Origin: a bacterium
GTDB taxonomy: Bacteria; Ratteibacteria; UBA8468; B48-G9; DSTR01
NCBI GenBank assembly: GCA_029551285.1
Contig: JAKPFT010000024.1
Location: forward strand, 1,317 to 65,316
Length of the DNA stretch: 64,000 bases
Direction: 5' to 3'
The notes beneath the pieces are model-generated. The model saw only the letters and a list, made by a program, of their open reading frames with translations. It did no database searches and was not told the origin of the DNA. Positions 25,165-47,424 of this stretch are shown here, one piece after another. The position numbers and the translations under genes were made by a program. The number at the start of each line of letters is the position of its first letter. The first letter of the stretch is position 1.

Positions 25165-25938
25165 TCACGGTACTGGCGCGGTGTAGGGCCAGCAACCAGG
25201 ATAAGTGGGATAAGAACTTCCCCCGCCAATGTACCAGCGGTTGGGTTCATCAACCTTCCACTGGTGAAGGAAGAGGTACTCTACATGGCCGTCAGCAAAA
25301 AGGAGATTGCAGGCACGGGCGTGGGGAAAACTTAAAGGTTGACTAAAAGCAGAACCGGTGAAATAGGTATCCCAGGGTTTGACATCGGCTAACATGGCCC
25401 GTTTGTCTGGTTTGAAGACCTTCCCTAACTTTACCGGTACCTGGGCAAAATTCTGCCGGCTTCCACCAACACCCCTTTCCGTGTATTGCCAGACAGAGTT
25501 AATGCCGTAAGTGGAACGGCCCCAGCGCATGACGCTTCCCCAGAGATGCGGCCAGTCACGATAAGTGTTCTGGCAACTGGCCGTCCAGTTGACCTTGTTT
25601 TCGGCCGCCGGACAGAAAACCACGCCGTGGAGCCGATTGTAACAGACCGGGCCTGTATTTCGGTCAGTATCCGCCATGTTCAGGTAACGGTCGTTGTCAG
25701 TTAAGCACTTGACCCAGCCCTGGGAGGGACCATAGGCGTCGTTATAGGGCAACCAGTCGTTATAATCCTGGGAGTACATGTGGAAAGCCAGGCCGATTTG
25801 CTTCAGGTTATTCAGGCAGGTAGTCTGTCTGGCTTTTTCCTTCGCCCCGGAAAGAGCCGGCAGCAGCATCGCTGCTAAAATCGCAATGACCGCAATTACC
25901 ACCAGCAACTCAATCAGCGTAAATCCCTTACCTCTCAT
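25165..25938 (-). CDS. Prepilin-type N-terminal cleavage/methylation domain protein (DUF1559 / H-X9-DG pseudopilin-like)
   Basis: MRGKG|[24 protein letters not shown] class-III signal with Glu at +5. C-terminal [12 protein letters not shown] (H-X9-DG). RBS GAAAGGAGGTGG. Confidence 0.9.
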
Positions 25939-26081: not shown

Positions 26082-28316
26082 ATGTGGAGGAAAAATTGGT
26101 TGGTCTTGCTCGGGTTTTTGCTGCTCTCCGGTCGGGCCGATAGTGCAGAAAAGAGCCACTACTGGGAATTGGGCTGGGGTCTGTACGGCGGGGAAGGGCT
26201 GGACGCGGCCAGGTTTGACTGGCACATGGTTTGCTTCGGGAATATCCCGGCTGACCAGCGCACCGTGGATAGTCTGAACGAAATTCTGAAACTGAATCCA
26301 GAGCACAAACTTCTTATCCGGGTCTGGCCGATTGGAGGGCTGGGTGACTGTCCCGAGAACAGGTATCAGGCCACGCTTTTTCACTATCTTTATCAGCCGG
26401 GAGTCCGGGAGAAACTGCTGGCGGAAGCCAGACGCCAGGTGGAACTGGTTTGCCGGGGGGTAAGTCATCCGGAAAATGTTTACGGCTGCTGCTTCCTGGA
26501 GGAAATGCCAGGGCACTTCACTGGCGGCGGTTTTTCCCCTAACTGGAAGAAGGGCGACCCTCTGCCGTGGGATATGAAAAGATTTCAGAAGGAGATTGAA
26601 GCCGAACTGGGAGAACCGTTGGACTGGAGCAGTGAGAAACACCGGCTCTGGTGGGGGAAAAAGTACTGCGAGGTACTGAAGGAGATCAACCGCACCATCA
26701 AGGAGGCCAGCGGTGGCAAACCTGTTTTTTACTACCAGGCTACTGGCTACTATACCCTGGACCATCTTGATCTGCCCTTCGCTAAGGGAAAATCTCTTCA
26801 GGTGGTGCCGATTCGCTACCGGGACATTCTTCTGCCAGGGGTTTGTGATGGTATTTTTGGCTATCCCAATAACCAGGCCATCTGGGAGAATCAGACCCAG
26901 TCCATGGTGAATAAGTACCGGTGCCTGATGTTCAGCCAGTTGTCCATGCCGCCAGGGATGAGGCTGTGCCGGTTTGACGAAATGGTAATGTTATCCAGGT
27001 GGAAAAGCCCAGGCAATGTCGGAACTTTTCTCTACGGAACCCACGGACGAAAGCAGAAAGCCTGGAACGAACTGGAATATCAGGATGCTGATAGTTACTG
27101 GACGCTGACTGACCATATTCGGCACTTTGCCTGGACCCGCGGCATCGGGCTGGATGTGGTCAACCGGAACTTGAAACCGCGGCTGGGACTGGTCTATGAC
27201 CTGAGAAATCTGAAGAAGGGAGAGTTCGCCCATTTTCAGGTCCAGATTACCAATGTCAGGGAACCGTCCTGGTACGGCGGGAATGCCGAAGAGGCTACCC
27301 TGCGCAATGTCCGGGTAACCCTTTCCCTGCCGAAGGGTTTTGCTATCCCGGTCACTAACAACGCTTCTCCAACCCTGAATCTGGGAGACATCCCGGGGCA
27401 GTCAGTTAAGTTAGCCGACTGGTGGGTTCAGGCTGAGACTGACCGCCCGGTTATTTCCGCGCAGAAACCGGTAAGGATCACTGTGCAGGCCGGGGAAAGT
27501 CTTAAAGAAGAGACCGTGGCTACCGAACCGGCTGCCAGTCTTCCTTCTTTTGAGACCAGAGAAATCCGGCGTTCTGGCGAGAAGTGGGTTGAGCCTCTTT
27601 ATCACTGTGATAAGGTCCCATCCGTGGTGGAACTTCGGCCGTTGCAGGAGATTGTTAATCCGCAGTTAAAGTTGGGCCAGCGCGTGGCGACCTATCAGGG
27701 GGTGCTGGAGCCAGATGTGCGGCTGGTGATAGGACCAGGCGCCAGAGCCAGGCTTTACCCGGTGTCGCTTTTTGAAGAAAAGGCGGGAATTTTTCCGGTG
27801 ACGGCTGATGGTCCCGGCGTGTTCCAGAGCGGCTACATGGTCCACGGCACGCCGCCTGTGGTGGTCCGGCCAGGCAGAAAGTACCTTCTAACCCTGACCG
27901 GGTGGGCGAAGGAAGGTGGAAATTCCCTGGTCCTGGCCAGGTTTACCGGTCGGGTGAAAGGGAAAAAGCAACCGGAAATCAAAGATATTTCCTGCCTGGC
28001 CAACAGGTTCAGCGACACAGAAAAAACAATTTCTCAGGAGATTGAAGTACCGGAGTTTGAACAGGGCGATGTGACCCTGCGTCTGATGTTCTACCGCTTT
28101 CAGTCAAGGGGTGTGGTCTGTTACCGCAGTTTTGACCTGAAACGGGCTGACATTCCTGCTGAAGGGCAGGATGTCAGTTCCAGGCTTCAGGGTACGCTAC
28201 CTGATTTGACCTACCCCTTTACTGAGTGGACTTACCGGGATGTCTCTGACCCGGATAGGTACGGCAGACCAATTCTTAAATTGCGTTTTCTACCACAAGA
28301 CCAGGTAAGCGACTAA
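26082..28316 (+). CDS. Secreted hypothetical protein (possible glycosidase-like)
   Basis: ATG at 26082 preceded by GGGAGGG. Signal-like MWRKNWLVLLGFLLLSGRADSAE. Uninterrupted ~744-aa ORF. No family recognised. Confidence 0.75.
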   Translation: MWRKNWLVLLGFLLLSGRADSAEKSHYWELGWGLYGGEGLDAARFDWHMVCFGNIPADQRTVDSLNEILKLNPEHKLLIRVWPIGGLGDCPENRYQATLFHYLYQPGVREKLLAEARRQVELVCRGVSHPENVYGCCFLEEMPGHFTGGGFSPNWKKGDPLPWDMKRFQKEIEAELGEPLDWSSEKHRLWWGKKYCEVLKEINRTIKEASGGKPVFYYQATGYYTLDHLDLPFAKGKSLQVVPIRYRDILLPGVCDGIFGYPNNQAIWENQTQSMVNKYRCLMFSQLSMPPGMRLCRFDEMVMLSRWKSPGNVGTFLYGTHGRKQKAWNELEYQDADSYWTLTDHIRHFAWTRGIGLDVVNRNLKPRLGLVYDLRNLKKGEFAHFQVQITNVREPSWYGGNAEEATLRNVRVTLSLPKGFAIPVTNNASPTLNLGDIPGQSVKLADWWVQAETDRPVISAQKPVRITVQAGESLKEETVATEPAASLPSFETREIRRSGEKWVEPLYHCDKVPSVVELRPLQEIVNPQLKLGQRVATYQGVLEPDVRLVIGPGARARLYPVSLFEEKAGIFPVTADGPGVFQSGYMVHGTPPVVVRPGRKYLLTLTGWAKEGGNSLVLARFTGRVKGKKQPEIKDISCLANRFSDTEKTISQEIEVPEFEQGDVTLRLMFYRFQSRGVVCYRSFDLKRADIPAEGQDVSSRLQGTLPDLTYPFTEWTYRDVSDPDRYGRPILKLRFLPQDQVSD

Positions 28317-28628
28317 GGTAGTGTCAAAAAAGGATGAAAGAAGAGTGAAAAGAAAGGGAACAAACTGGCTCACTCAAGGTGCTCCGGCACAGACAAGAAC
28401 TACGCCGAAATCGGTCGCTCGGCGAACTCGCTCGCCATCTGGCGAGCTGGAGACACCGCCGAGTAAGGTATTGCGTCCCGGATGGACTTGTCCGGGCCGC
28501 TTACCGAGCGCTGCCGCTTTTCGTCTTGTCTTGTATCTGTGCCTTCGCAAATCGTTCGCCAGTTATTCCCTTCCTTTTTTGACAATGGAGAGAAAGCGGA
28601 GAGATAAGGAAAGGCAGAACCATTGACA
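28317..28628 (+). ncRNA. Structured intergenic element, copy 1 (candidate cis-acting RNA / structured repeat)
   Basis: Starts immediately after the TAA at 28314-16. Nested complementary segments are detailed in the findings. Near-identical copies lie at 35.1 and 39.5-40.1 kb. That it is a repeat is certain; RNA function is inferred. Confidence 0.6.
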
Positions 28629-28697
28629 GAAGCAAGAAAAGACAAAGAAAAGCTTTTATAAGTCTTTGACAGAACCGGGCTTTTAACAGGAGGCAAC

Positions 28698-29474
28698 ATG
28701 GTGACAAAAACCAGGCTGGTTTTCTCCGCAGTGGTTCTGCTGGCCGAAGTTCTTTGCTCAGCGGAGAAAAATTTAAGTTTTCCAGTTGGTATCTACTTTA
28801 ATCCGATAAGAGAAGAACCCAGGGCGGTCACTTACGGCTATGAAGGAGTGAGAATTGCCCTGGAGGAAAACGGGTTTGACGATGTCCGTTACATCAAATC
28901 TTTCCACCCGGAAGAACTAAAAGACATCCGGGTGCTCATCATTTCCTCAGTGCAACGTTATCCTTCTGCCTGGGATTTGAACCAGGTGCGAGAGCAGCAG
29001 AGAAAATTTGTAGAAACTGGTGGTGGGTTACTCCTCATCCATGAAGCCATCGGCTGGCGCGGCGTCTTCAAGGACAATCCAGTCTTCCAGGAAATCGGCC
29101 GCGGGGTCGCCTACGACGGGAAAACATTCGCGCCGGTTCAGGTAACCCCCCTGGTGGTAGTTGATAAAAACCATGCTATCACCAGGAATCTTCCGGAAAG
29201 CTTCGCCATGCAGTATGACTGCGCTCCGTTGAAGCCAGGCCCGAAAGGCAGGGTTTTGATTAAACTGGCTGACGAGGCCTATGTTCGGGGCCAGAAGGTC
29301 AAACTGGATAATCTGGCAGCGCTTATCGTGGGTGAACATGGCCGGGGACGGGTAGTGCTGATGGGTCCCTTAGTCGGTCTGGCGCGGCTTCCCCGGGAGA
29401 TGGAAAATCCTCCTCAGGGTGGCGAACTTCAGATGTTGCTCAACGCGGTGAAATGGGCGGCCGGCCTTGACTAA
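28698..29474 (+). CDS. Secreted hypothetical protein, possibly ThuA / class-I glutamine-amidotransferase-like fold
   Basis: Signal-like N-terminus. RVLIISS..GGGLLLIHEAIGW..GRVVLMG pattern. RBS AGGAGG before the ATG. The fold call is weak. Confidence 0.7.
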   Translation: MVTKTRLVFSAVVLLAEVLCSAEKNLSFPVGIYFNPIREEPRAVTYGYEGVRIALEENGFDDVRYIKSFHPEELKDIRVLIISSVQRYPSAWDLNQVREQQRKFVETGGGLLLIHEAIGWRGVFKDNPVFQEIGRGVAYDGKTFAPVQVTPLVVVDKNHAITRNLPESFAMQYDCAPLKPGPKGRVLIKLADEAYVRGQKVKLDNLAALIVGEHGRGRVVLMGPLVGLARLPREMENPPQGGELQMLLNAVKWAAGLD

Positions 29475-30139
29475 TGACCGGTGGGCCAGCCACAGTCTCT
29501 TATCCGGGCAGTGCTCGGCGTAACTTCCAGCACCACAAAACCACCGTGGCGCAGGGGACCAGGATTGATTAGCAGCGTCGGTCCTAATTCATCCTTCCCG
29601 CTGGCTTCATGAATGTGGCCGCAAAGACAGACGACCGGCTTTTTCTCTTCAATGAAAGTCCTGACGGCCTGGCTGCCCACGTGCCGACCGGAACGCACCA
29701 GGTCAAGTCTTGTCCCGAATGGTGGTTGATGAGCCAGCAGCAGGAAAGGAGTTTTTTCCGGCAATGACTGATAAGCCGAGGCCAGGAGTGCCTGAAGTTG
29801 ACCTTCCGTCAATTCGCCTGGGGTGTACACCGGACAGGGCAGGGAAAAACCTATTCCCAAAAATCCTATCCCCTGGATGAATCTGGTCTGCCCATGAAGA
29901 CTAAGACCTTCCTTCCGCAGATAATCTTCCACAACCTTTTCGTCACAGTTGCCGGCGACGGCTAACACATCCGGGAAATAGCGCCGTATTTCTCCAATCA
30001 CCCTCGCCGCTTCTGCCCGGCCACCAAAATTCGTCAGGTCTCCTGAAACCAGCACCAGGTCTACCTGGCCTACCTTCTCGGCCAGGCCGGACAGGCCGGT
30101 GATATCTCCGTGAATGTCAGAAAGACCTAAAATAACCAT
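29471..30139 (-). CDS. Metallophosphoesterase (calcineurin-like, YfcE/MJ0936-type)
   Basis: Motifs DIHGD, GDLTNFG, GNCD and GHIH in canonical order. I place the start at MVILGLSDIHG (30139) rather than the 319-aa track ORF. Confidence 0.85.
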   Translation of the reverse strand: MVILGLSDIHGDITGLSGLAEKVGQVDLVLVSGDLTNFGGRAEAARVIGEIRRYFPDVLAVAGNCDEKVVEDYLRKEGLSLHGQTRFIQGIGFLGIGFSLPCPVYTPGELTEGQLQALLASAYQSLPEKTPFLLLAHQPPFGTRLDLVRSGRHVGSQAVRTFIEEKKPVVCLCGHIHEASGKDELGPTLLINPGPLRHGGFVVLEVTPSTARIRDCGWPTGH

Positions 30140-30202
30140 TTTTCTGCCTTTTTTAGAAGATATTACCACAGCTTGCCCTCGGGTGCTACAATAGAAACTG
30201 CG

Positions 30203-31741
30203 ATGGACAGAAGCAAAAAAGTTTTCCTGGTGAAGAATGGCCAGCCGGTGGCCGCAGTTTATCTTCCGCAGGGTGTCGGCCAGGAGACCAGACAGGCCAG
30301 CCAGGAATTGGTTCGGGTCATTTACAGGTCCACCGGTGTCAAACTTCCCGTGACCACTGAAAAATCCCTCTCGCCCGGTCAAACCCTGATTCAATTTTCT
30401 ATCAGGCGTGCTGGCAACCGGAAATTCCAACTGCCGCCGGAGGATAGTTTCATCATTTCTGCCCGGACCGGAGAAATTAAAATTCTGATTTCCCGTCCGG
30501 AAGTTCTGCCGGTGGCGGTGGCCAGATTTTTAGAGGAAACAACCGGTGCCAGATGGTTCTTTCCCGGTCCAGCCGGTGAAGATATCCCGTTAAGGAAGGA
30601 TGTTTTCTTCCTGGCCGGAAGGAAAAGTTACCAACCTGCCTTTGCCTGGCGCAGCCTTGGCTGGAAAGATAACTCCTCTGTAGAAGTGTGGCAGAAGAAG
30701 AATGGCCTGTTACGTTTTCCGATTAATCGCGGCCATGCCTACTCGGAAATTTTGCCCCGGCGGCTCTTTCGCTCCCATCCGGAATTCTTTTCCTTAATCT
30801 GCGGCCGGCGAAGAATAAATCCCAGCCAGATGTGTTTTTCCGCGCCAGGCATCCTGGAACAAACCCTGAATTATGTGGCCAGAGTTTTTCAGGAAAATCC
30901 TGGTCTGGTGGCTGTCTCCCTCTGTCCGGCTGATGTAGACTATTTCTGCGAATGCCATCGCTGCCGGCAGGGAGAAAATCCCACCCGTTACTACGACCTT
31001 TACGTGCGGGAGCCGGCTTACGGTTACGGTGGTCCAGGGTTCGCCGCCCATCTTTCTGAACGGGTTTTTCGTTTCACCAATCGGGTGGCAGATGAAGTAG
31101 CGCGGAAATTTCCTGGCAGGTACTTGATCGTTTACGCTTACGGTGCCTATCGTTACCCTCCGGAAGGGATAAGAATCAGGGATAATGTCATTATCTGGTT
31201 GACCACCACCTGCCTGGGCTGGTGGAACCCGGAAAGGAAAAAGTTAGAGATACAGAGGATCAAAGCCTGGCGCCAGGCCGCCAGAAATATCGTAATCTTT
31301 GAAGCCCTTTCTAACCAGGCCTGGCCAGAAGTTCCCAGGATAGCGCCCCGCCTGGTGGCCGAAAGTCTTAGAACTTACCGCCGGTTGGGCATTCGGGGAT
31401 TTTACTCGCAAATGTTTGGCGACTTCGGCACCAATCTGCCCAATTATTACCTGGCCGCGAGGTATCTCCGGGATACCAGACTTGACTATCAGAAGGAACT
31501 GGCCAGTCTGCTCCAGCGCTGTTTTGGGCCAGCAGCCCGGGCGGTGAAAAAGTACTGGGAGATTCTCTCTCAAGCCTGGCAGGATCTGACAGAGGACGGC
31601 ACTCTGGAGGGAGCCCGCTCGCTGATCAACCCCCACAACGAGTATCTACATCTGGCCAGGCTTTACCCGGAAAGGGTACTCCGCCAGGCGGAGAAAGCCC
31701 TGAGGGAAGCAAGAAAGCTGGCTGGCAATACACAGAATTGA
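30203..31741 (+). CDS. DUF4838-family glycan-active protein (short paralog)
   Basis: Shares the Cys cluster FCECHRCRQ with FWCQCPECL, EWCRCPRCR and ACRCAQCL of the paralogs at 45-53 kb, and the GHAYSE/HPEFF region. Start chosen at MDRSKKV (30203). Confidence 0.8.
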   Translation: MDRSKKVFLVKNGQPVAAVYLPQGVGQETRQASQELVRVIYRSTGVKLPVTTEKSLSPGQTLIQFSIRRAGNRKFQLPPEDSFIISARTGEIKILISRPEVLPVAVARFLEETTGARWFFPGPAGEDIPLRKDVFFLAGRKSYQPAFAWRSLGWKDNSSVEVWQKKNGLLRFPINRGHAYSEILPRRLFRSHPEFFSLICGRRRINPSQMCFSAPGILEQTLNYVARVFQENPGLVAVSLCPADVDYFCECHRCRQGENPTRYYDLYVREPAYGYGGPGFAAHLSERVFRFTNRVADEVARKFPGRYLIVYAYGAYRYPPEGIRIRDNVIIWLTTTCLGWWNPERKKLEIQRIKAWRQAARNIVIFEALSNQAWPEVPRIAPRLVAESLRTYRRLGIRGFYSQMFGDFGTNLPNYYLAARYLRDTRLDYQKELASLLQRCFGPAARAVKKYWEILSQAWQDLTEDGTLEGARSLINPHNEYLHLARLYPERVLRQAEKALREARKLAGNTQN

Positions 31742-31743
31742 CC

Positions 31744-32070
31744 ATGGCGGCCGTCAAAGAATGTCTGGCCTTAGAAGATATGGGCTTGCCTCCTTTCTAT
31801 TTCGCGGCGTGGCTTGCTCCCTCCTATGACTTCAGGTTCTACCGGGCCCTGGCCAGGGGGAAGGACAAACGACTTCTTATCCACGCTCTCCAGCGAGCGA
31901 TTGGCGCCTGGGAAAAAAGGGAGAAATTCGTCAGAAAACTGGCCGGAAAACATGTCCTGAGCGAAACTCTTCTTCAGAGAAACAGGCGGTTTGACCCACG
32001 TCCGGTGCTGACCCGGATGCTGAAAATAGTCAGGGAGATGGACGCTCTCTCCAGGAGGACTGGAAAATGA
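31744..32070 (+). CDS. Hypothetical helical protein
   Basis: ORF begins 3 nt after the upstream stop. No recognisable motif. May correspond to the helical region that follows the DUF4838 core in the longer paralogs. Confidence 0.45.
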   Translation: MAAVKECLALEDMGLPPFYFAAWLAPSYDFRFYRALARGKDKRLLIHALQRAIGAWEKREKFVRKLAGKHVLSETLLQRNRRFDPRPVLTRMLKIVREMDALSRRTGK

Positions 32071-32140
32071 CGCAACGGTGGCGGCACCTTCTCCTGGTAC
32101 CTTGTCTTGTGCCTTTCATCCTTGAGGCTCACTGGCAGGA

Positions 32141-32950
32141 ATGGTCAACTACTCCGGTCAGCCCCAGCATAACCTCAGGATAAGAGTCCCGGAAGAATAC
32201 TGGAAATACGTGGCTGGCTGGGTCAGCCGGGATTGCGGCGCCTGTCTTCTAAGAGTAGAAAATGGCCAGATTCTCGTGCCGGAGGTCCTTTACGGAGGCA
32301 CAGTAATTCTCGGTCGGGACCAGAAGGAGGTAGACTTCTGGGTGAAGAAAAACCAGAACCGACCGTGGCTGGCGAGAAACAATCTGACCACCCCTAAAGG
32401 TTATGGTCGCTGGTATAATCGGCAGATTGCTCCGGAAAAAGTACCGGATGGCTACTGCCTCAGCCGTTATCGGGCTGGTACCCATGAACGGCACGAATAT
32501 CTCTTTGCGGATATCCTGGCCCCCGAGTTGGTGACGGCCGGTCAGAAAGCCGAAATCAGCCTGAAAATTCTCCAGACCAACTTCGATTACCTGGAATACT
32601 GGCAGCTGATATTCTCGGAGATGAATACCGGCCGGCAGGAGGCTGTGGCTATAGCCTTGCCTGAGGGAAATCATCACGCCGAAGGAACTAAACTTACCGG
32701 GGAAACCCTGGTTACCTGGTGGCAACCTGCTATTCCCGGAGTTTACCAGGTTTATCTGGGCTATCGCATGGTCAGGCTTGACCACGACGGCGAACCTTTC
32801 CTGGAACCGGAAAATGTCGCTGCTGGTTACAGCGGCAGCACTCCGGCTAATCTTTTCCTGAAGAGTCAGCCCCTGGTGAAAAGACCGTGCCTTGACCTGG
32901 TGCGCGGTTTGAGAATCAAGGTTAAGCCTGCGGCAGGCGGAGAAGCCTGA
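32141..32950 (+). CDS. Hypothetical protein
   Basis: 269-aa ORF with no motif recognised. Its 3' end overlaps the convergent amidohydrolase gene by 29 nt. Confidence 0.55.
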   Translation: MVNYSGQPQHNLRIRVPEEYWKYVAGWVSRDCGACLLRVENGQILVPEVLYGGTVILGRDQKEVDFWVKKNQNRPWLARNNLTTPKGYGRWYNRQIAPEKVPDGYCLSRYRAGTHERHEYLFADILAPELVTAGQKAEISLKILQTNFDYLEYWQLIFSEMNTGRQEAVAIALPEGNHHAEGTKLTGETLVTWWQPAIPGVYQVYLGYRMVRLDHDGEPFLEPENVAAGYSGSTPANLFLKSQPLVKRPCLDLVRGLRIKVKPAAGGEA

Positions 32951-33836
32951 GGGCGTTGTCCCGCATGATTTTCCTGAAGACCTCTTCACTGATTTTTCCT
33001 GTGGCGTGCCAGTTCAACAGCAACTCCATTGTCCGAAAAGGCATGCCTACCTGACAGTAATCGGTGCCAAAAAGGAGTTTATCCTGAAATTCAGTAAGAA
33101 ACTCTGGCCCGTAGTTTTCGTCCCGGCTTAGGGCTGCCGCGGCATCTGAGAGTTCCGCGTAAAGGTTTTCGTAACGGCGCAGTAACTTCTGGACAACACC
33201 CTCCTCTTTCACCGGACCAAGAGGAAAGTCTATGTGAACCTGACAGCCGTCTGGCCGGAAAACAGACTTCCGCTGCCCTGGAGTTTCTAACGGCGCAATC
33301 TCTGCCCAGAAAACCGGCCCGTGAGCAATCATCACCAGATCAGGAAAACGCTGCAGCGTATGCTCCAGTTGGGGAAGCCCCGGGTCATCGTAAAGTCCGA
33401 AGTCCCCTCCAACCCGGTCAGAACCGTCAAAGGTAACCGGTAAGCCAGTCGCCTGGGCGTGTTTGAAAAGGTTCTGCACCAGCGGATGCATCATCGGCAG
33501 ATTTAGCATTACTTCGCCGACCCCTCTGCAGCCTAAGTCTCGGTAATAACGGAGAAGCCTGTCTAAGGGAGCATCAACCGCATTCGTCAGGGCTCTGGGG
33601 TCAATGTTACAGAAGGGGATAAAACGGTCTGGGTACTTTTCTACCATTTCCAGGATATCTTCGTTGGCCTGCGGCAGGTAAATCTCCGGGCTGACCACTG
33701 GAAGGAGAACCCCCTTTTGAATGCCGATCTGGTCGTAACGCTCCAGAACCTGTTCCGGCGTGGGAAACCGGGTCACAAAAGGCACTGGCTTGCGGTAGGC
33801 GTGCGCATGAATATCAATAAACATTTTCTCTTCCAC
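32922..33836 (-). CDS. Amidohydrolase-2 family metal-dependent hydrolase (TIM barrel)
   Basis: N-terminal FIDIHAHAY (HxH metal motif); ~300 aa, a typical length. Confidence 0.8.
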   Translation of the reverse strand: MEEKMFIDIHAHAYRKPVPFVTRFPTPEQVLERYDQIGIQKGVLLPVVSPEIYLPQANEDILEMVEKYPDRFIPFCNIDPRALTNAVDAPLDRLLRYYRDLGCRGVGEVMLNLPMMHPLVQNLFKHAQATGLPVTFDGSDRVGGDFGLYDDPGLPQLEHTLQRFPDLVMIAHGPVFWAEIAPLETPGQRKSVFRPDGCQVHIDFPLGPVKEEGVVQKLLRRYENLYAELSDAAAALSRDENYGPEFLTEFQDKLLFGTDYCQVGMPFRTMELLLNWHATGKISEEVFRKIMRDNALRLLRLPQA

Positions 33837-33925
33837 GGCTGGCTCTCCTCAAACTCCTTCTTACTCTACCTTTCTTCTGCCATCTTCGTCAACCGGCTGG
33901 CCACCATGACAAAAACACATGGGAG

Positions 33926-33955
33926 TTGACAGCAAAAGCAGCCTGGTGGTATAAT
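33926..33955 (+). promoter_or_regulatory. Sigma70-type promoter of the GntR/LacI-type regulator gene
   Basis: TTGACA (33926-31), 18-nt spacer, TATAAT (33950-55), 37 nt upstream of the ATG at 33992. Confidence 0.65.
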
Positions 33956-33974
33956 TGTTGCAAGAAGACAATAT

Positions 33975-33990
33975 AATACCAGCGGGTATT
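33975..33990 (+). promoter_or_regulatory. Perfect 6-bp-arm palindrome AATACC-AGCG-GGTATT abutting the regulator start codon
   Basis: Seen directly: AATACC at 33975-80 and GGTATT at 33985-90. Could be an operator or an RNA hairpin covering the ribosome-binding region. A second inverted repeat, ATTGT-N9-ACAAT, overlaps the -10/+1 region. Confidence 0.35.
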
Positions 33991-33991
33991 T

Positions 33992-35113
33992 ATGCACAGG
34001 GGTAAAGCTCGGCCGCTTTATGCAGGTATCTACCTGGAACTGAAGGATAAAATCCAGCAGGGAAAACTTAAGGTTAACCAGCGGATGACCGAGCGGCAAC
34101 TGAGTCACCGGTACCAGGTCAGCCGGGTCACCATAAGAAAAGCCCTCTCCCTTTTAGTCAGAGAAGGTTATCTCCACCGCCTGCCTCGTCTGGGAACTTT
34201 TGTCACTTCCACTTCTTCGGCTCCTGGAATCTTCCCCGGCCGGTATAGCAATCATACCATTGGCATTCTCATTCCCTGTATCACCTTTTCCCTTTACGCC
34301 GGCATCGTCCGGGGCGCTGAAGATTTTCTTCTGACCCGGGATTACACCATTATGGTGGGCAGTTACGATGCTAATCCTGAGCGGGAAAAGTCATACCTGG
34401 AAAGATTTACCTGCCAGGGTATCTCCGGTCTGGTCATCGCTCCCAGTTACAATTCCAGGCCTGATGTTTATCTGGAGTTGCTGGTAAAAAGAAATATTCC
34501 CTTCGTCCTGGTGGATACTCCCCTGCCAGGGATTGACGCCGATGTGGTCCAGACCGACGGAGTGAAGGGCGGCTATCTGGGGACTAAACAATTGATTGAG
34601 ACTGGCTGCCAGAAGATTGCCTTCCTGTGCGGCCATCTGGGTCGCTGTTCCAACTCCTCTTTCCGGCTTCAGGGTTATCGCCAGGCCATCGTGGAAGCAG
34701 GTTTAGATTTCAATCCCGAACTTATCTTTGAAGGCGACTTCTCCAGAGAGTTCGGATACCAGACAGTAAAAAAACTGCTCTCCCGGGAAAGTATTGACGG
34801 TATCTTCTCAGCCAATGAACCCATTACCTTAGGGGTTCTGCAGGCAGTGAGCGAACTTCCTGATGACAGGCGGAAGGAAATTTTAGTAGTTTCCTTTGAC
34901 GAGATTTCCACGCCGGTTGAATATTCCAGCCCTTTAATGGTGGTGCGGCAACCGCGGATGATGATTGGCCAGGTAGCCGCTCAGATTCTGTTAGAGCGCA
35001 TTAAAGAAAAAAAGCGGCAGGAGAATTCTGCTTACCGGCAGATTTTCCTCTCCCCGGAATTGAATGGCTCCAGATTTCTGGAAAAAACGGTTTTCTCAGA
35101 GGTGAACGGCTAA
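33992..35113 (+). CDS. Transcriptional regulator: GntR-type winged HTH fused to a LacI/PBP1-type sugar-binding domain
   Basis: N-terminus has the GntR HTH signature ([41 protein letters not shown]). The C-terminal ~280 aa are periplasmic-binding-protein-like ([23 protein letters not shown]). Confidence 0.85.
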
Positions 35114-35427
35114 GGGTAGTGTCAAAAAAGGAAGAAACAAGAATGAAAAGAAAGGGAACAAACTGGCTCACTCAGAATGCTCCGGCACAGACAGGGACTA
35201 CGCCGAAATCGGTAGCTCGGCGAACTCGCTCGCCAGGGGGCGAGCTCAGACACCGCCGAGTAAGGTATTGCGTCCCGGATGGAATTGTCCGGTCCGCTTA
35301 CCGAGCGCTGCCGCTTTTCGTCTTGTCTTGTATCTGTGCCTTCGCAAATCGTTCGCCAGTTATTCCCTTCCTTTTCTGACAATGGAGAGGAAGCGGAGAG
35401 AGATAAGGAATGGCAGAACCATTGACA
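35114..35427 (+). ncRNA. Structured intergenic element, copy 2
   Basis: Starts immediately after the regulator TAA (35111-13). About 90% identical by eye to copy 1. Lies between the regulator and the pseudopilin-like operon. Confidence 0.6.
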
Positions 35428-35501
35428 GAATTAGAAAAGACAAAAAAGAATTGAAGTCCTTCACAGAACCAAGAAACAGGAGCCAACTATCAGGAGGAAA
35501 G

Positions 35502-36113
35502 ATGGAAAAGAAAGGATTTACGCTGATTGAGTTGCTGGTGGTCATTGCGATTATTGCGATTTTAGCCGCGATGCTGCTACCGGCTCTGTCGACGGCAAGA
35601 GAAAAGGTCAGGGAAGCCAGCTGCCTGAACAACCTCAAGCAGATTGGCCAGGCGATTCACATGTACCTTAATGATTATGAATTTTGCTGGTTCCAGTCAG
35701 GAGAAGCCGGCCGACAGCCGCGCTGGTATGACCCGTGGGTTTTGCCCAAATACTGCGGTGGCGGGACTGTAGCGACCAACAAAGTTTTTAAGTGCCCTTC
35801 TCATAGGCAGTGGCCTGTCTGGGGAACTCAGTCAAGTTACGCCATGAACTTTTATCTTGACCCAACCTACACCGGAATTCTCCACTCCGGACCTGACACC
35901 CTTAGCCGACGCGCCCATCTGGTAATCTTTGCTGACGGAAGCGGTAGCAATCATACCTTCTCTGGCAGCCATCTTACGCGTTTAGGACCCCGCCACACCA
36001 AAAGAGGTATTAACTTTCTTTATGTTGACGGCCATGTGCAGCTGGCCAGACCAGGAGATCTACCGGAGGATGTCTTTTTCGCCAATAATAGTAAGAAAAC
36101 CGTTGTCTGGTAA
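35502..36113 (+). CDS. Pseudopilin-like protein 1 (prepilin-type N-terminal methylation domain, DUF1559-like)
   Basis: MEKKG|[37 protein letters not shown] before the ATG at 35502; the track ORF from 35268 runs through the repeat element. C-terminal [11 protein letters not shown] motif. Confidence 0.9.
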
Positions 36114-36128
36114 AACGAGGAGGGAGAA

Positions 36129-36950
36129 ATGGAGAGAAAGAGTTCGGGCTTCACTTTAATTGAGTTGCTGGTGGTGGTAGCCATCATTGCTATTCTGGCC
36201 GCGATGTTGCTTCCGGTTCTGGGCAAAGTCCTGGAGAAGGCTTCCCGGTCGAACTGTCTTAACAACCTGAAGCAGATTTACCTCGCCTGCTGGATGTACG
36301 CCAGCGATTACGAAGACCGATTACCGGCTTTTGGTAGCGATTACACCACCTGGACAGCCAACGACAGTTATACCCTTCTATGCGGACGGGTTCCCAATGC
36401 CACCGGTCCAGGTAGTGTAATACCCAGATATATTGACAATCCGAATATTCTCCAGTGCCCCAGCCGGAAAAAAACTGCGTTTGATGTTAGTGTGCGCAAC
36501 GACCCGGCTCAGGCGTTCCGCCTTGGCAATCTTAACATTGGCTACACCATTGCCTCCGGTTTGCATATGCGGCGGGAACCCAACTACCGGGTGGTAGCCT
36601 GTGACCGAAAATGGAGTACCAGCACCAATGCTTGCACCGGTACAAGCCGGGGTAACGGCTGGTGCATCAACGGCTGGTATAATCAGCCCAGAGACAATGA
36701 CAGTACAAGGTTTTTCTCCAGCTCGGAAGGTATCCCCAACCACTGGCCGGACGGTCTAAATGTGGCTTACCTGGACGGCCATGTCGCCTGGGTGCCGATG
36801 GGGCCAATGATTGATGTTATCCCGCCAACTCAGCAATGGAACACCCATGTCCGCGGCTGGCATCTGGGGGCGGCGCCTGACCTTTCCAATCCCCAGATGG
36901 CTACCGCTTACACAAGCCCGAACGCCATTATGATGAGAGAGCCGTTCTGA
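36129..36950 (+). CDS. Pseudopilin-like protein 2 (DUF1559-like)
   Basis: MERKSSG|[24 protein letters not shown]; C-terminal [13 protein letters not shown]. Confidence 0.9.
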
Positions 36951-36968
36951 AAATGGAAAGGAGGAAAG

Positions 36969-37601
36969 ATGGAAAAGAAAGGATTTACGCTGATTGAGCT
37001 TCTGGTGGTCATTGCGATTATTGCGATTTTGGCCGCGATGTTGCTTCCGGCTCTGTCCAGGGCAAGAGAAAACGCCCGGCGGGCCAGCTGCGTGAATAAC
37101 ATGAGACAGATCGGTCTGGCCGTGGCCCAGTACTGTCAGGATTGGAACGGAAGTTTCCCGCAAAACACTTCGGGAGGAGACAATCCCGCCAACGCTTCCT
37201 GGTGCCGCCGTCTTTACCAGCAGGGCTACATCAAGGACAAGAAAATTGTCATCTGTCCTTCAGCCAGAAAATGGGGTACCTTTATGTTTAACTACGACAC
37301 CTGGAACGCTCCTTTAACCTACAGCGTACCAAGCTCGCCCAGTGAGGCCTATGCCGGCAACCTCAGCTTTGTCAGAGATACCTCCAAAGCAATTTACCTT
37401 CTGGAAGGGTACTGGTTTTACAACGGTGTTTATTATGGCTGGCACTGGGTGGGCAAGGTTACCAGCACCGCAAGCTGCCTGAACCCTGTTAGCGGCGACC
37501 GAAAACCCCATCCCAGGCATAACCTGAAACTGAATTTTCTCTTTATGGACAACCACGTGGAGTACCTGGCCGTGGAAGATATTGCCAATCTGGTCTGGTA
37601 G
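36969..37601 (+). CDS. Pseudopilin-like protein 3 (DUF1559-like)
   Basis: MEKKG|[24 protein letters not shown]; C-terminal [17 protein letters not shown] (DG replaced by DN). Confidence 0.9.
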
Positions 37602-37620
37602 TTGGAAAAAGGAGGCCGAG

Positions 37621-38382
37621 ATGAGAGGGAGAAAGGGTTTTACCCTGATTGAGCTGTTGGTGATTATTGCGATTATTGCCATCCTGGCAGCGATGCTTCT
37701 TCCAGCCCTGGAAAAGGCCAGGAAAAAAGCTGAGCAGGCAGCCTGTATGAATAACCTGAAACAATTAGGGCTCGCTTTGCGGATGTACTGGGATGACTGG
37801 GATGAGCGGATTATTCCCGCCTGGCTGGGAGCGCCGCCTGGCGGATTGGGTGCCCAGCCCCAGCCAAGAAGGCCGGCCATCTGCGAACTTCTCTATGTTA
37901 ATAACTACATCAACAACACCGAACTCTGCCGGTGTCCAGCCTGGGGATTTAAGAGAACCCGGTATCCCTATGAACCTAACCTTACCTGGGGATGGAGTGG
38001 AGCAGGCTACTATGCTGGAGGTACCAACCCGAATATCCCTGCCGCTGGCGTGTTCCTGTTTGTCTTTGACTACGGGTTTAACGGCATGTGGCCTGGCCAG
38101 GGTTCTGGTTTTGGCGACTGGAGTAAGAAGTTGAAGGATGTGCAGCGGCCTTCCCAGATTGTGGCTATGAGTGAAGCCAATGTTTCTGGCTATCTGGATA
38201 ACGCCTATTACAACAACACCTTTGCCGCTTTCACCAGGCCAGTCATCAGTCCTTCTTCCTATTATGGCCAGCCCTGGAAGGTACCCCTTCACCTCACAGG
38301 TTTCAACTATCTTTTCTTTGATGGCCATGTGGAATTCCTGTCCGCTCAACAGGCCTCAGACATCAGATACTGGATACCCTGA
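37621..38382 (+). CDS. Pseudopilin-like protein 4 (DUF1559-like)
   Basis: ATG at 37621 after AAAAAGGAGG. MRGRKG|[25 protein letters not shown]-terminal [12 protein letters not shown] (H-X9-DG). Confidence 0.9.
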
Positions 38383-39510
38383 ATGGTTGGTGCCAGAAGA
38401 ATCCCTGGAGATCTGAAGATAAAGGGTAACAGGAAGTTCTGCCTGACTGGAGTGTTGGTCCTTTTCTTCTGTTCCTGCCTTCAGGGAGCCGGCTGGCTTG
38501 ACCGGGCTTATCCCTGCCGGCAAAAAATCACCATCAGCGATGGTTTCTACCTCATCGGTTCGGACCTGAAAAACTTTCCGCTCCTGTTAGTTTTATCTGA
38601 CGGCAGCAACCCGCTTTTCCAGAAAGCGAAACCGGACGCTGCTGACATCACCTTCACCGCGGATGATGGAACCACCAGACTACCTCACGAGATAGAAATC
38701 TTTTCTCTCTCGCCGGCCAGGCTGGTCTGCTGGGTGGTCCTTCCTTTTCTTTACGCGGACCGGGAAACCGCCATTTATCTTTATTACGGTTCTTCCCAAC
38801 CCCTGGCTTGTCTGCCGGCTACGGATGTCTGGAAGGAAGGTTTTCTGGGTGTCTGGCACTTTCAGGACGCAGTGGCCCCGGATGGCAGAGCGGTGGCCGT
38901 CAAGAATTCTGCCGGAAAAACTCTGACCGGCCTGACTAATAGCAACTTCGCCGTTGAAGGAAAAATCGGCCAGGGGATGGCTGGCACAGTCAGTTTTGAC
39001 CGGAAGGATGGTCCGGAATTTACCCCGGAAACTTCTTTCAGCGCTGAGGCCTGGGCCTTCTGCAGCGAAGTACCCTTCCGGACAACGCTGTCGGTGCTGG
39101 GGAAGGGTTCCGGTGGCCGTGGCTGGTCGCTTTACTGGCATGAGGCTGGCCGGTGGCAGACCAATATCACCCATGACTACCGGAACGAAAACACCCGCTT
39201 TTACCTGATGGCACCTGACCAGCCAGCCGGTCAGTGGCGACATCTGGCGGTCACTTACGAAGCGGAAAGCAGAAAACTGCGACTTTTTGTTGACGGCCTG
39301 GAGAAAGCCTCAGGGAGAGTGCCAGACGGAATTAAGGAGTTTTCCGTGGCTTCACCTTTTTCTATCGGTGGAATTAAAGGAAGGATAGACGAAGTCAGAC
39401 TTTCTCAGGTAGCCCGTTCTCCAGACTGGGTGGCAGCCTGTGAAAAAAATCAGCGTCAGCCTGGCCGTTACATCCGGTTTGGAAAGGAAGAAGTTGTTAC
39501 TCATTCCTGA
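38383..39510 (+). CDS. DUF2341 plus LamG (concanavalin A-like lectin) domain protein
   Basis: N-terminal hydrophobic anchor. The DUF2341 pattern reads W..Y.CRQKITI..NFPLLLVL..DITFTADDGTTRLPHEIEIF..WVVLPF..IYLYYG. The C-terminal LamG-like segment reads WRHLAVTYEAESRKLRLFVDG..GRIDEVRLSQVARSPDWV. The ATG directly abuts the upstream stop. Confidence 0.85.
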   Translation: MVGARRIPGDLKIKGNRKFCLTGVLVLFFCSCLQGAGWLDRAYPCRQKITISDGFYLIGSDLKNFPLLLVLSDGSNPLFQKAKPDAADITFTADDGTTRLPHEIEIFSLSPARLVCWVVLPFLYADRETAIYLYYGSSQPLACLPATDVWKEGFLGVWHFQDAVAPDGRAVAVKNSAGKTLTGLTNSNFAVEGKIGQGMAGTVSFDRKDGPEFTPETSFSAEAWAFCSEVPFRTTLSVLGKGSGGRGWSLYWHEAGRWQTNITHDYRNENTRFYLMAPDQPAGQWRHLAVTYEAESRKLRLFVDGLEKASGRVPDGIKEFSVASPFSIGGIKGRIDEVRLSQVARSPDWVAACEKNQRQPGRYIRFGKEEVVTHS

Positions 39511-39517
39511 AAGGAAA

Positions 39518-39826
39518 AAGTAGTGTCAAAAAAGGAATGAAAGAAGAATGAAAAGAAAGGGAACGAACTGGCTCACTCAGAATGCTTCGGCACAGACAAG
39601 GACTACGCCGAAATCGGTTGCCCGGCGAACTCGCTCGCCATCTGGCGAGCTCAGACACCGCCGAGTAAGGTATTGCATCCCGGATGGACTTGTCCGGTCC
39701 GCTTACCGAGCGCGTGCGCTTTTCGTCTTGTCTTGTAGCTGTGCCTTCGCAAATCGTTCGCCAGCTGTCCCCTTCCTTTTTTGACACAGTGGAAAGGAGA
39801 GGGAGAGAGACAAGGACAGGCAGAAC
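39518..39826 (+). ncRNA. Structured intergenic element, copy 3 (first unit of a tandem pair)
   Basis: Conserved GTAGTGTC begins 9 nt after the TGA at 39508-10. Has a perfect 16-bp terminal complement, GTGTCAAAAAAGGAAT.. / ..CTTCCTTTTTTGACAC. Confidence 0.6.
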
Positions 39827-40134
39827 CAAAAAAGGAATAAAAGAGGAATGAAAAGAAAGGGAACGAACTGGCTCACTCAAGGTGCTTCGGCACAGACAAG
39901 GACTACGCCGAAATCGGTTGCTCGGCGAACTCGCTCGCCCGGGGGCGAGCTCATACACCGCCGAGTAAGGTATTGCGTCCCGGATGGACTAGTCCGGTCC
40001 GCCTACCGAACGCGTGCGCTTTTCGTCTTGTCTTGTATCTGTGCCTTCGCCAATCGTTCGCCAGCTGTCCCCTTCCTTTTTTGACAGTGGGGGGAGGAAG
40101 ATCGGGAAGATAAGGACAGGCAGAACCATTGACA
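39827..40134 (+). ncRNA. Structured intergenic element, copy 4 (second unit of the tandem pair)
   Basis: Exactly 300 nt downstream of copy 3 (TTGACA at 39781 and 40081; ATGAAAAGAAAGGGAAC at 39548 and 39848). Its 5' end lacks the GTAGTGTC segment. Confidence 0.6.
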
Positions 40135-40201
40135 GGCATAAGAAGACACTAAAAAACAACTCAACATTCTTGACAGGCCAAGAGAAACCTGGAGGCAGAA
40201 A

Positions 40202-43200
40202 ATGAAAAAGGTGCTGCTGGTGGTGTTAATTTCTGGTGCCCTTTGCACCGGGACAACCCTCAGCGCTGAAGGCCTGCCCTCTTTTGTCAACTGGTCGTAT
40301 CAGGACGCCTATCAGCGAGACAATGGCTGCCGCAACCTGATTTCCCTAAACGGGTGGTGGCGCTGGCAACTGGCTGGGAAGGAAGTCTCGCCACCAGAAA
40401 CAGGCTGGGGCTATCGGAAGGTACCCGGCTACGGTATCAACTTCAATGTTCTGGAGGCTAACGGCCAGATTTGGAAACTGAAGCCGGAAGAAAAATGCAG
40501 CCTCTGCTGGGTGGAAAGAGAGTTTACTGTGCCTTCAGAATGGAGCGGAAAGAAGGTTCAGGTAATCTTTGAATCCATTGAAGGAGACGGCGAGGTCTGG
40601 CTGGACGGACAAAGGTGTGGTTACACCTGGGACGGATGTGTCTATGCCCTGGAACTGAAACCACCCTATCGCACCAGCCCCTACCGGCTTTCCGTGAAGT
40701 CAAACGGCGTGGTAAGCAATGTCTGGCTGAAGGCGCTACCGGCTGGGCCGGTAATCACTGACGCTTATCTTTCCACCTCGGTGAGGAAGATGACCGCCAC
40801 CATAAGAGCCAGGGGTACTGGAAAACCGGAGAATAAATTGAAGGTGGTGATTACCGACTACCGTCAACCTGACAGAATTGTCCGGAGCGCCGGACCATTT
40901 TCCCTTCAGGCTGATGGCCAGGGCTGGAAACTGGAACAGGAGTTTGACTGGAAGGATGCTAAACTCTGGTCCCTGGAAAGCCCGAATCTCTATAACTACT
41001 ATCTGGAACTTTCTGACAGGCAGGGCAAAGTTATTGACCGGATCTTCCCCATCCGGTTCGGCTTCCGGGAAGTCTGGATCAAGGATGGCTCTTTCATGCT
41101 CAACCATCAGCGAATCACCATCACCAACGATATCCACTCTCCTTTAGCCATTCATCCTGCCAGAAACATGGGCCGCTCTTATAGTCCCTATACTGACGAG
41201 GACACCTGGCGCCGGATTATCAGAAGGTGGAAGGACCTTGGCGTCAACTGCGCTGAATACCGGTGGGGTGGAAATATTGATGACGAACTTCTTTTCCGGG
41301 TGGCTGATGAAGAAGGTTTTTTCATCACCATGAGCGTGCGAGGACTGGAACGAAATCCTGTCGTCCGGTCCATCCCGGCAATGGCTGCTTACAACTACGA
41401 TGTCAACGCTTATCTGATTTTTCCCCGGCGGCACTGCCCCTGTGTGCCCTTTTATTATCTGAGCAGCCTGGCTAACGCCTGGGACTATGCCCCCTTTCAC
41501 TTAGGGGAAGACTTTGATACCGAAAAACTTTTTGGAAAGAGCAACAAGGAAGAAAGAGACCTGATAGAAAAACTTGACCCGGTAAGAGCGCCGATCTCTG
41601 GTTCTTACAGCGGCGGTGGGAAAACCGAACCTTTCCACTCCTCCATGAACTACATCGGCATTCACGTTGACCTGCAATCCTACGAGAACTGGCCGCTGCG
41701 GTGGTCACAACACCGGAACAAACCGCTGCTGACTTACGAAATGGCTGTTCCGCCCTACATTGCGGAATGGTACCAGCGGCCTTCCCGGGGAACCCAGGCC
41801 CATGGTGTCCCTGGAGTTCTTCCCTTTTTTATGGAATGTGGCGCCATCTACCTGGGCGAAGAGCCGTATCTTCTGGAGCCGAAAGAAAAAATTGCCGGAT
41901 GGCTGGAAAACGTGGCAAAAGGGAAAAATCCAGGCTATCCGGCCCGGGGCGGCAGTTTGACCTACGAGAAGGTGGCGGAAATCTGCACTCATCATGTCTT
42001 TCGTTCCTGGAAGACCTATGGGGTCAATATGGGCTTTTTCGTCCAGACAAGGGAGTTTTTTGAAGAGCCGCGGATGGTTTTTCAACCGGTCAAGGTTGAC
42101 CCCAGACAGCCCGGCATCTTTCCCGACGCAGCTATTACAGAGCACATTTTCACCATGGGTCCTTTGCGACCACTGGGAGAAATTGCGCGAAAAGCCCTGA
42201 GCAAGCTTCTAATTTATATCGGCGGACCAAACGGAGAATTCACCCTGAAAGACCACTGTTACACCTCAGGAGAAACTATCACCAAAGCCGTGGTCATGCT
42301 GAATGAGTACGAACGAGCACTAACCGTATCCGGGACCTGGCAACTGTGCCAGAAAAACGGGCCGGTGCTTCTTTCCGGCAGCTGGCCAGCCACGGTCTTG
42401 CAACCCGGTGAGATTGCTCCAGCCAGGGTCCATCTCAGTCTGACCGCACCAGCAGTTAAAGAAAGGACTGATTTTGTGCTGAAACTGAAGGCCCAGGCTG
42501 ACCAGCCCGGAAGTCTGGAAGACGAATTTTCGCTGACAGTTTTCCCGCCAGCAGGCAAGCCCGTGGTGAAACCAGGTACCCAGATTTTTGTTTATGACCC
42601 GGTAGGTGATACCAGCCAGCTCCTGCGGCAGGCTGGCCTCAATTTCCAACCGGTCACCGACAGTCTTCCTGACCCGGAAAACGGCCTTTTAATTGTTGGC
42701 CGCAACTGTCTTAAAGGAGAGCCTGGCCAGATGTTTAACAGACTCCTCTACCGAAAAATGACCTATGATTTTGCCACCAATGTAGCCAACGGAATGAGGG
42801 TGCTTATCTTTGAACAGGCCCTGAATAATCTCTGGGGACTGAAAACTGAACAGGCCCGCTGGCGAAGAACCTTTATCACCGCACCAGGCCATCCTGTCTT
42901 TCAGGGCCTGGAAGCCAGCGATTTTCTTTATCTGAAGGGACACGGCAACCTCGTTGACCCTTATCCTGAGGAACCGCCAGCCACCACGGACCGAATTGCC
43001 GGCAGCCGCTTTCCCCGCTGGGGTCTGGACAATACGGTGGTAACTTATTCTCTGGTGAGGCCGCAGTTGGGCGCCTGTCGTTCTCTGCTTTCCTGCGGTT
43101 TTGACCTTCAGGAAAGCGCCCTGCTGGAGGTGGCCGCGGGCAGGGGAAGGATGATTTTCTGCCAGGTGGATGTCACCAACCGCTACGGCCAAGACCCGGT

Positions 43201-47411: not shown

Positions 47412-47424
47412 CGAAGGAGAAAAA

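Follow-up and report, generated by a model that had tools for sequence, protein, structure and literature searches.

The Correia elements of Neisseria and the ERIC/IRU elements of enterobacteria are simple hairpins of 100–160 bp that occur in both orientations, with a TA duplication or none; they are co-transcribed with their neighbours and may affect the processing or stability of the mRNA (RNase III cuts Correia hairpins) or carry promoter parts. The BOX elements of Streptococcus pneumoniae are modular (boxA-boxB(n)-boxC), with a middle module of about 45 nt in variable copy number, and are intergenic with a stable predicted structure. Here we describe a repeat family from a 64,000-nt stretch of contig JAKPFT010000024.1 of a bacterium of the Ratteibacteria (the window, within which all unprefixed positions are counted). 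One member, copy 2 (35115–35470, + strand), fills, as the first-pass annotation had stated for the element, the 388-nt spacer (35114–35501) between a regulator gene with GntR and Peripla_BP domains in Pfam (33992–35113, + strand, TAA at 35111–35113) and the first of several pseudopilin-like genes (35503–36113, + strand, ATG at 35503; N_methyl/DUF1559 domains). [quoted passage not shown]

MITEs have been described among the insertion sequences (IS) of the IS6 family, of which two, of 227 and 336 bp, are known; ends in this family have a GG tip and the motifs cTGTt and caaa, and are flanked by 8-bp direct repeats (PMC7986276). The terminal inverted repeats (TIRs) of IS26 (GGCACTGTTGCAAA) and of ISCth4 from the IS256 family (GGCAGTGTAAATA) both carry the GG tip and TGT at positions 6–8 (PMC8477213). 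With MITEs derived from IS6 and IS256 the repeat shares that it is non-coding, a few hundred bp long, bounded by inverted GG/TGT ends and an 8-bp duplication, present in many copies and absent from the corresponding sites of a relative. It differs from typical IS-derived MITEs in that its interior is a conserved multi-branched fold and not merely two IS ends, that no cognate transposase was found for it, that its units multiply in tandem and that its insertions near stop codons and ribosome-binding sites (RBSs) are strictly in sense orientation. Like BOX it is built from a head, variable tandem middle modules and a tail, lies near genes and has a stable predicted structure, whereas its unit is about 300 nt long instead of about 45 nt, its inverted termini and 8-bp duplications are clear, and its host belongs to another phylum. 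Like the Correia and ERIC elements it is an interspersed imperfect palindrome in transcribed intergenic regions, but it measures at least 360 bp, is multi-branched, has a single orientation and has 8-bp duplications.

In the window the family (D1) is represented by four 272-nt copies, all on the + strand, starting at 28317, 35115, 39519 and 39819; a probe of the 34-nt core gave 2 matches where 0.00 were expected by chance. A pattern search more specific than the 15-base pattern used for a scan of a genome collection yielded 55 contigs (given here with L-numbers) of a few metagenomes from digesters, JGI 3300010338 and 3300009654 and ENA ERZ795045/46/60 among them; these contigs contain some 80 copies, 88–95% identical, and many of them break off within the repeat. 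By its content of pseudopilin/DUF1559, sulfatase and glycosidase genes, and by one homologue with the label Omnitrophica, the uncultured host would probably belong to the PVC group. The loci listed by that unspecific 15-base scan were all chance matches, none with the second core motif, and the repeat was absent from a scan of viral contigs and from a blastn search of plasmids. Its internal open reading frames (ORFs) had no Pfam match, and copies differ by 1-nt indels; a coding remnant of a transposase was rejected on these grounds. With the covariance models of Rfam 15 nothing in the window reached the gathering score; at lower scores there was nothing plausible on copy 2 or on the divergent copy 5 at E up to 10, and on L102, L150 and L156 only an unrelated tRNA; a ribozyme or viroid-like tandem repeat was therefore rejected, there being no Rfam match at E up to 10.

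The copies are parts of cassettes, whose boundaries were set at the points where similarity among copies stops. A cassette begins with the head GGTAGTGTC, right upstream of which the left flanks of different loci are unrelated; where units follow one another the junctions read GGCAGAACC|AAAAAAGG, and the final unit is followed by a tail of about 110–130 nt that is conserved among loci as far as TTTGACAGAACC. Past this point come 10–25 variable nt, the RBS and the ATG. The tail resembles a truncated and degenerate unit when compared by eye (GAAAAGACTAAAAAACAACTTGAAGTC versus GAAAAGAAAGGGAACAAACTGGCTC of the full unit), with intermediate deletion forms in L113 and L120, and a cassette is therefore composed of a head, one to at least four units of about 300 nt each, and a mini-unit. 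Copy 2 is a complete cassette of this kind with a single full unit. It has a purine-rich linker (35382–35419, + strand) that varies in length and sequence and terminates in the unit-junction motif GGCAGAACC, and its mini-unit (35420–35470, + strand) contains box 1 (TTGACA, 35422–35427), an A-rich stretch, a weak hairpin and box 2. Cassettes in the window are 356–661 bp long: that of copy 1 spans 28317–28676 (+ strand), and copies 3 and 4 form one cassette of two tandem units with a period of 300 nt (39519–40179, + strand). The longest array with this period is on L102, with four full units and partial units at both contig ends. At one locus the number of units is polymorphic, with two in L124 (3049–3633) and at least four in L118 (6227–7402), which comes from another sample and has an identical tail and downstream gene.

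An alignment splits the copies into two types. Type A, to which copies 1 to 4 belong, is multicopy; purines make up its 5′ arm and pyrimidines its 3′ arm. The core of type B is 75–85% identical to that of type A, and its outer parts are different; type B is closed by AAATTCCGACATAAG ... CTTATGTCGGAATTT and has the terminal sequence CTRAAATTCCGACATAAG, and it was found in the window as copy 5 (53662–53955, + strand; core identity 76%, termini CTAAAATTCCGAC ... GTCGAAATTTTGG) and in L132, L147/L150, L156 and L108. A tRNA gene (941–1012, 73 bits) lies on the opposite strand about 75 nt from the type-B copy in L150. L138 contains a divergent type-A copy (3550–3845, minus strand; 81% identity), in which two hairpins have been swapped for sequences that still pair (GCCCAC/GTGGGC and CCTGTCCCG/CGGGACAGG, the loop being longer).

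The evidence for transposition begins with the termini. The left end (GGTAGTGTCAAAA) and the right end taken as its reverse complement (GGTTCTGTCAAAG) are identical at about 12 of 15 positions, the last 12 nt of the mini-unit (TTTGACAGAACC) being an inverted copy of the left end, and the termini carry the GG tip and TGT at positions 6–8. In copy 2 the left TIR is GGTAGTGTCAAAAAAGG (35115–35131, + strand), with both of these features; 25 left ends show it conserved, the sequences before them being unrelated. The right one is box 2 (35459–35470, + strand), a degenerate TTGACA box that reads CTTCACAGAACC, the family consensus from 37 tails being TTTGACAGAACC (reverse complement GGTTCTGTCAAA). The TTGACA boxes are thus the cores of the inverted repeats of the element (reverse complement CTGTCAAA). 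The ends have the GG tip, TGT at positions 6–8 and CAAA, but without the two bases that separate TGT from CAAA in IS26 and IS257 (TGTTGCAAA; IS257-type ends read GGTTCTGTTGCAAAGT), so that the repeat reads TGTCAAA. The TIRR of ISCth4 (GGCAGTGTAAATA), the single member of the IS256 family compared, is identical to the left end (GGTAGTGTCAAAA) at 10 of 13 positions and to the head in L117 (GGCAGTGTCAAAA) at 11 of 13.

The 8 nt abutting the two ends of a cassette resemble each other. At the 12 loci for which both flanks are available, cognate pairs are identical at 4.75 of 8 positions (59%) versus 2.17 of 8 (27%) in non-cognate pairs, and in a permutation test of these 8-mers 100,000 permutations never gave an identity as high as that observed (p < 5e-5). 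When the flank length was varied from k = 3 to k = 14, a strong signal was obtained at k = 8 only. Examples of such pairs are TGATTAAA/TGATTACA, GTTTAGCC/GTTTTGCC and AGAAGAAA/AGAAGGAA. A looser test, in which flanks of 24 nt were aligned locally, gave no significant result (p = 0.09), since flanks rich in purines align with one another. Within the window the cassette of copies 3 and 4 is the only one of type A that has kept the duplication, with AAGGAAAA (39511–39518) and AAGAGAAA (40180–40187) identical at 6 of 8 positions. Type-B copies are likewise flanked by direct repeats: L132 has AAACCCCGATG on both sides, L150 has ACCTGAA and ACTTGAA, and copy 5 of the window is flanked by AAACCCGTA (53653–53661) and AAATCCGTG (53956–53964). 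IS256 makes a duplication of 8–9 bp.

Empty sites are seen in the syntenic contig L161, the regulator of which (62% amino acid identity) is the closest relative of the window's regulator that was found. In L161 the regulator, the pseudopilins, a protein with a LamG domain and a glycoside hydrolase of family GH2 are encoded in a tightly packed operon without the element: the gap between regulator and pseudopilin is 15 nt and that between the LamG and GH2 genes 7 nt, versus 388 nt and 691 nt in the window. The repeat core is absent from all 21 kb of the syntenic region. Upstream of the L161 regulator, the divergent promoter region (9790–9960) has a pyrimidine-rich and then a purine-rich stretch, with a 37-nt match of 81% to the 5′ arm of the repeat (AAAAAGGAGAGAGAAAACAGAATGAAAAGGAGGGGAA) adjoining GGGGTAGTTGACAG ... 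TATAAT; the match either is a chance effect of low complexity or hints at where the arm came from. The identity of 88–95% among copies, the target duplications and the empty sites together point to recent insertions and not to a leader that evolved with a regulon. Inverted ends, a fixed 8-bp duplication, small size, absence of coding capacity, multiple copies and presence or absence at orthologous sites are among the properties by which MITEs are recognised, and the repeat has these.

From the form of the termini and the length of the duplication, the enzyme acting on the repeat would be a DDE transposase of the IS256 or the IS6/IS26 type, which would recognise the GGnnnTGT termini in trans. 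It would insert the cassette with an 8-bp target duplication, preferring purine-rich 8-mers on the sense strand just past stop codons and at ribosome-binding regions, and this preference would lead to copies in one orientation at operon junctions and in 5′ untranslated regions. Promoters upstream would then transcribe the inserted copies together with the flanking genes, in the case of copy 2 the promoter at 33926.

Several observations weigh against this account. The flank duplication is clear at some loci only (7 of 8 positions at L109, L113 and L134) and is unrecognisable at copy 2 (2 of 8) and copy 1 (3 of 8), and the cassette boundaries for the duplication test were chosen after the data had been seen, though only k = 8 works. 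The termini match the TIRs of IS6 and IS256 in part only (10–11 of 13 positions with ISCth4), and the spacing from TGT to CAAA is 2 nt shorter than in IS26 and IS257. Tandem arrays of units are atypical of MITEs, and so is a multi-branched fold that is kept by compensatory changes and common to two subfamilies with different termini, which would not be expected of simple MITEs. That the cassettes are co-transcribed and read through is something that we only infer. Finally, a tblastn search of 343 kb of sequence with Tnp26 as query revealed no autonomous partner, only an unrelated rve/IS481-like gene in L116. This AT-rich gene (1091–2059, minus strand) encodes a transposase of 322 amino acids, lies about 430 nt upstream of a type-A copy and, by its composition, would be foreign to the host. 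Its ends show no relation to the repeat, and it was rejected as a partner.

Each of the 37 cassettes with a right flank leads into an RBS and ATG on the same strand. Of 26 left ends, about 19 are found between −34 and +19 nt from the stop codon with which a co-directional ORF ends, and some cassettes are without such a gene directly upstream. In the window, copy 1 begins 1 nt past a TAA (28314–28316) and precedes a ThuA-like gene (ATG at 28698), and copies 3 and 4 lie between the LamG-domain gene (TGA at 39508–39510) and the GH2 gene (ATG at 40202). In L104, L131 and L149 the upstream ORF enters the element for about 34 nt and ends at a TAA in the 5′ arm (GGAATAAAAG); here a stop codon within the insertion stands in for the native one, and the ORF has gained about 10 codons. 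The target 8-mers are 74% purine on the strand of the element, and such targets could explain both the position at stop codons and Shine-Dalgarno (SD) sequences and the orientation.

A position a few nucleotides past the preceding stop codon, an imperfect palindrome and co-oriented genes are also found in integrons, with their attC sites. The repeat is two to five times longer, has 8-bp duplications and is flanked by conserved operon and housekeeping genes that are contiguous in the relative, and for its size, its duplications and the conserved synteny an attC site was rejected; neither an integrase nor attI was seen.

The genes that follow the cassettes have no single pathway in common. By Pfam they encode phosphoglycerate kinase (PGK), lumazine synthase, a ClpB-like protein (Clp_N), an aminotransferase of class IV, an H+-PPase, ExbB, a T2SS ATPase, an SDR protein, a GGDEF regulator and a nucleoside hydrolase, and in the window the ThuA-like protein, the pseudopilin and the GH2 protein. 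Glycolysis, riboflavin, chaperones, amino acid metabolism, transport, signalling and glycan use are all represented. The first-pass annotation saw in the element a module that gates operons for glycan utilisation; since the same cassette precedes the genes of PGK, lumazine synthase, the ClpB-like protein, aminotransferase IV, H+-PPase, ExbB and the GGDEF protein, this proposal is not supported, and it is by accident that the window suggests a link to glycan use.

The same annotation regarded the element as an expanded intrinsic terminator with a tract resembling an anti-SD sequence, which would make it a conditional terminator, an attenuator or a translation-control leader of the downstream operon. 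The geometry that it described, an A-run opposite a pyrimidine run, is indeed present. In copy 2 the A-run of the 5′ arm (35124–35129, + strand) lies opposite the pyrimidine tract TTCCCTTCCTTTTCT (35363–35377, + strand), which forms the 3′ strand of the closing stems of a hairpin of about 260 nt; a T6 run is found in copies 1, 3 and 4. Intrinsic terminators, including the bidirectional ones with an A-tract and a T-tract, have the A-run upstream and the T-run downstream of a stem as well. In the repeat, however, the stem closes a multi-helix domain of 260 nt, the partner of the T-run is about 240 nt upstream, the helix next to the T-run is not compact and G+C-rich, and arrays precede essential genes. 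The region 27800–40400 was scanned for a G+C-rich hairpin (stem of at least 5 bp, loop of 3–8) directly followed by a T-run. No terminator-like site was found at the 3′ end of any of copies 1 to 4; the 17 sites in the whole region compare with a shuffle expectation of 16.8, and the matches inside the element are due to a weak internal hairpin of 5 bp only. A small internal hairpin, GAGCG-NNNN-CGCUU followed by UUCGUCUUGU, is found at 35303–35316, 28506–28519 and 39708–39721, and its loop (CUGC, GUGC, AUCC or GUCC) is among the most variable spots across copies.

Regulation would fit a position between cistrons and a tract that can switch partners, an alternative pairing of the attenuator kind. 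The two predicted partners are the 5′ arm (in the minimum free energy (MFE) structure) and the adjacent purine linker on the 3′ side (in the centroid structure), not the SD sequence of the gene, which speaks against the anti-SD function. Nor would one expect of a terminator or regulatory leader that it precedes housekeeping genes of many kinds, that arrays of three to at least four units lie between promoter and gene, or that copies are 88–95% identical, with target duplications and with empty sites in a relative. In L129/L154, for example, ribH is preceded by an array of three units, and a sigma-70-like promoter (TTGCCA-17-TAGAAT) is located 21 nt upstream of this array. We therefore hold a terminator or leader of this type to be improbable, although the element may have a secondary role as a processing site or attenuator.

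Perfect TTGACA boxes that face the gene lie 5 nt from the right tip and about 50 nt upstream of that tip, so that the element could be a mobile promoter, whose TTGACA at the right end or in box 1 gives a −35 box or a whole promoter, and with it a separate start of transcription, to the downstream gene. Ends of the IS6 family are known to supply outward −35 boxes, some cassettes lack a co-directional gene directly upstream, and in copy 2 the promoter scan found TTGACA-18-AAGAAT at 35422–35451. This −10 is not conserved among copies, the family consensus after box 1 being AAAACA/TAAAAA, which lacks the invariant final T, and 16–18 nt past box 2 there is the RBS and not a −10. Across copies no conserved −10 follows either box, and the earlier statement that there is no convincing −10 downstream of the TTGACA boxes therefore stands. 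A sigma-54 or ECF promoter in the tail was dropped after inspection by eye, since TGGCAG-N5-TTGAC occurs in the window copies only and most copies read TTGCAAAACC. The host and L161 make use of canonical sigma-70 promoters, and in L129, where the upstream gene is divergent, such a promoter sits upstream of the cassette. That the element serves as a mobile promoter is, in our opinion, very doubtful.

The promoter that probably drives transcription through copy 2 is of the sigma-70 type and lies upstream of the regulator gene (33926–33955, + strand; a perfect TTGACA-18-TATAAT, 12/12, with TG present). In L161 the equivalent promoter upstream of the regulator reads TTGACA-17-TATAAT. As had been suspected, expression of the downstream genes thus probably depends on read-through from 33926, given that the tail has no conserved promoter and that the genes of L161 form one tight operon. 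Judged from the sequences, the cassettes would in general be co-transcribed with the flanking genes and largely read through. The terminator or riboregulator concept as a whole is mostly unsupported, the read-through alone being retained.

One feature that distinguishes the repeat from a simple MITE is its fold. The unit of copy 2 is predicted to form a multi-branched hairpin domain (35120–35381, + strand; −109.9 kcal/mol, z = −3.8) that is closed by GUCAAAAAAGGAA and UUCCUUUUCUGAC and consists of a long imperfect rod and a junction with at least three hairpins; the basal stem is a duplex of 13–15 bp. Type B is predicted to fold into a long rod with the same junction. The fold is supported by covariation: in an alignment of 36 sequences, from which the structure used for the count had itself been derived, 98.2% of the cells pair, and nine pairs have changes on both sides versus 3.6 ± 1.1 in shuffles and 0–2 in slid controls. 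Between types A and B, as seen by eye, there are compensated helices (GCCGAAA/UUUCGUC versus GCAGCCAA/UUGGCUGC, and CACAG/CUGUG versus CGCAG/CUGCG), and variation among copies is concentrated in the loops. By these predictions and counts the fold is real as a property of the single strand. It may serve a function of the RNA or of transposition, or it may reflect templated mutation or gene conversion.

The conserved core could be a functional RNA cargo that acts in cis on the host operon once it is co-transcribed, which would be compatible with mobility. It could be a processing site for RNase III or RNase E that uncouples the stability of the cistrons, or it could act as a 5′ stabiliser or as a spacer, structured and rich in purines, that resists the loading of Rho, and a property of this kind would let the element persist in sense orientation only. 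The pairing, the two-sided and compensated changes, the variable loops and the 13–15-bp basal duplex are all consistent with such a cargo, as is the sense orientation of 37 of 37 cassettes. A fold that is kept and a core that is common to types with different termini hint at a function beyond selfish spread. The bases unpaired in the MFE fold of the sense strand are 65–69% purine, in agreement with the purine-rich flanks reported in the first-pass annotation, and windows with more C than G are rarer on the + strand (29–42%) than on the minus strand (49–63%). This skew is modest, and the idea of Rho avoidance gains little from it. The minus strand of copy 2 folds at least as well (z = −6.0), and the strand on which the fold is kept is not revealed by the cells in helices predicted for both strands, G-U versus A-C being 3 versus 9 in type A and 11 versus 7 in type B. 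Compensated changes in short hairpins also arise by quasi-palindrome templated mutation or by gene conversion among copies. We regard an RNA cargo as possible, yet on the unlikely side.

A combination of both ideas, a transposable element that has become adapted to operons, the core being a functional RNA module and the transposase targeting purine-rich stop-codon/SD junctions strand-specifically, would amount to a mobile intercistronic RNA domain; we mention it tentatively, as a rather unlikely case. If it applied, the RNA module would render an untranslated insertion of about 0.4–1.2 kb in a polycistronic transcript harmless or useful, for instance through resistance to Rho-dependent polarity or through processing.

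Some other repeats and genes of the window may be recorded here. The 5′ segments of about 185 nt of four successive pseudopilin-like genes (35492–35676, 36125–36309, 36959–37143 and 37614–37798) are 62–82% identical in DNA sequence (families D2, I1–I4) and have an inverted partner at 25741–25929 in a gene on the opposite strand 10 kb away; they are N-terminal prepilin segments of paralogues. Three large genes with DUF4838/GH-like domains (45057–53613), paralogous and arranged in tandem, have repeated DNA blocks in common (families D3, D5 and D8). Downstream of copy 5 there is an ORF of 73 amino acids (54039–54260), in which a hydrophobic stretch near the C-terminus may be one membrane helix, and a convergent ORF of 152 amino acids (54288–54746) that resembles a universal stress protein, both judged by eye.

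With a non-autonomous transposable element as the likely identity of the repeat, the element is not a glycan-sensing riboregulator and should be masked as a repeat when genomes of this lineage are annotated. It also breaks metagenome assemblies, many contigs ending within it, and its unit number, which varies at one locus, could be used as a strain marker. A structured core, tandem units and a strict sense orientation at stop-codon/RBS junctions are unusual features for a MITE-like family. The family is a natural case of a non-coding transposon at dozens of such junctions in one orientation, among them junctions upstream of pgk, ribH and a clpB-like gene. It raises the questions of how operons work with 0.4–1.2 kb of structured untranslated RNA between their cistrons and of whether a transposase that would be IS256- or IS6-like can choose its targets in a strand- and context-specific manner.

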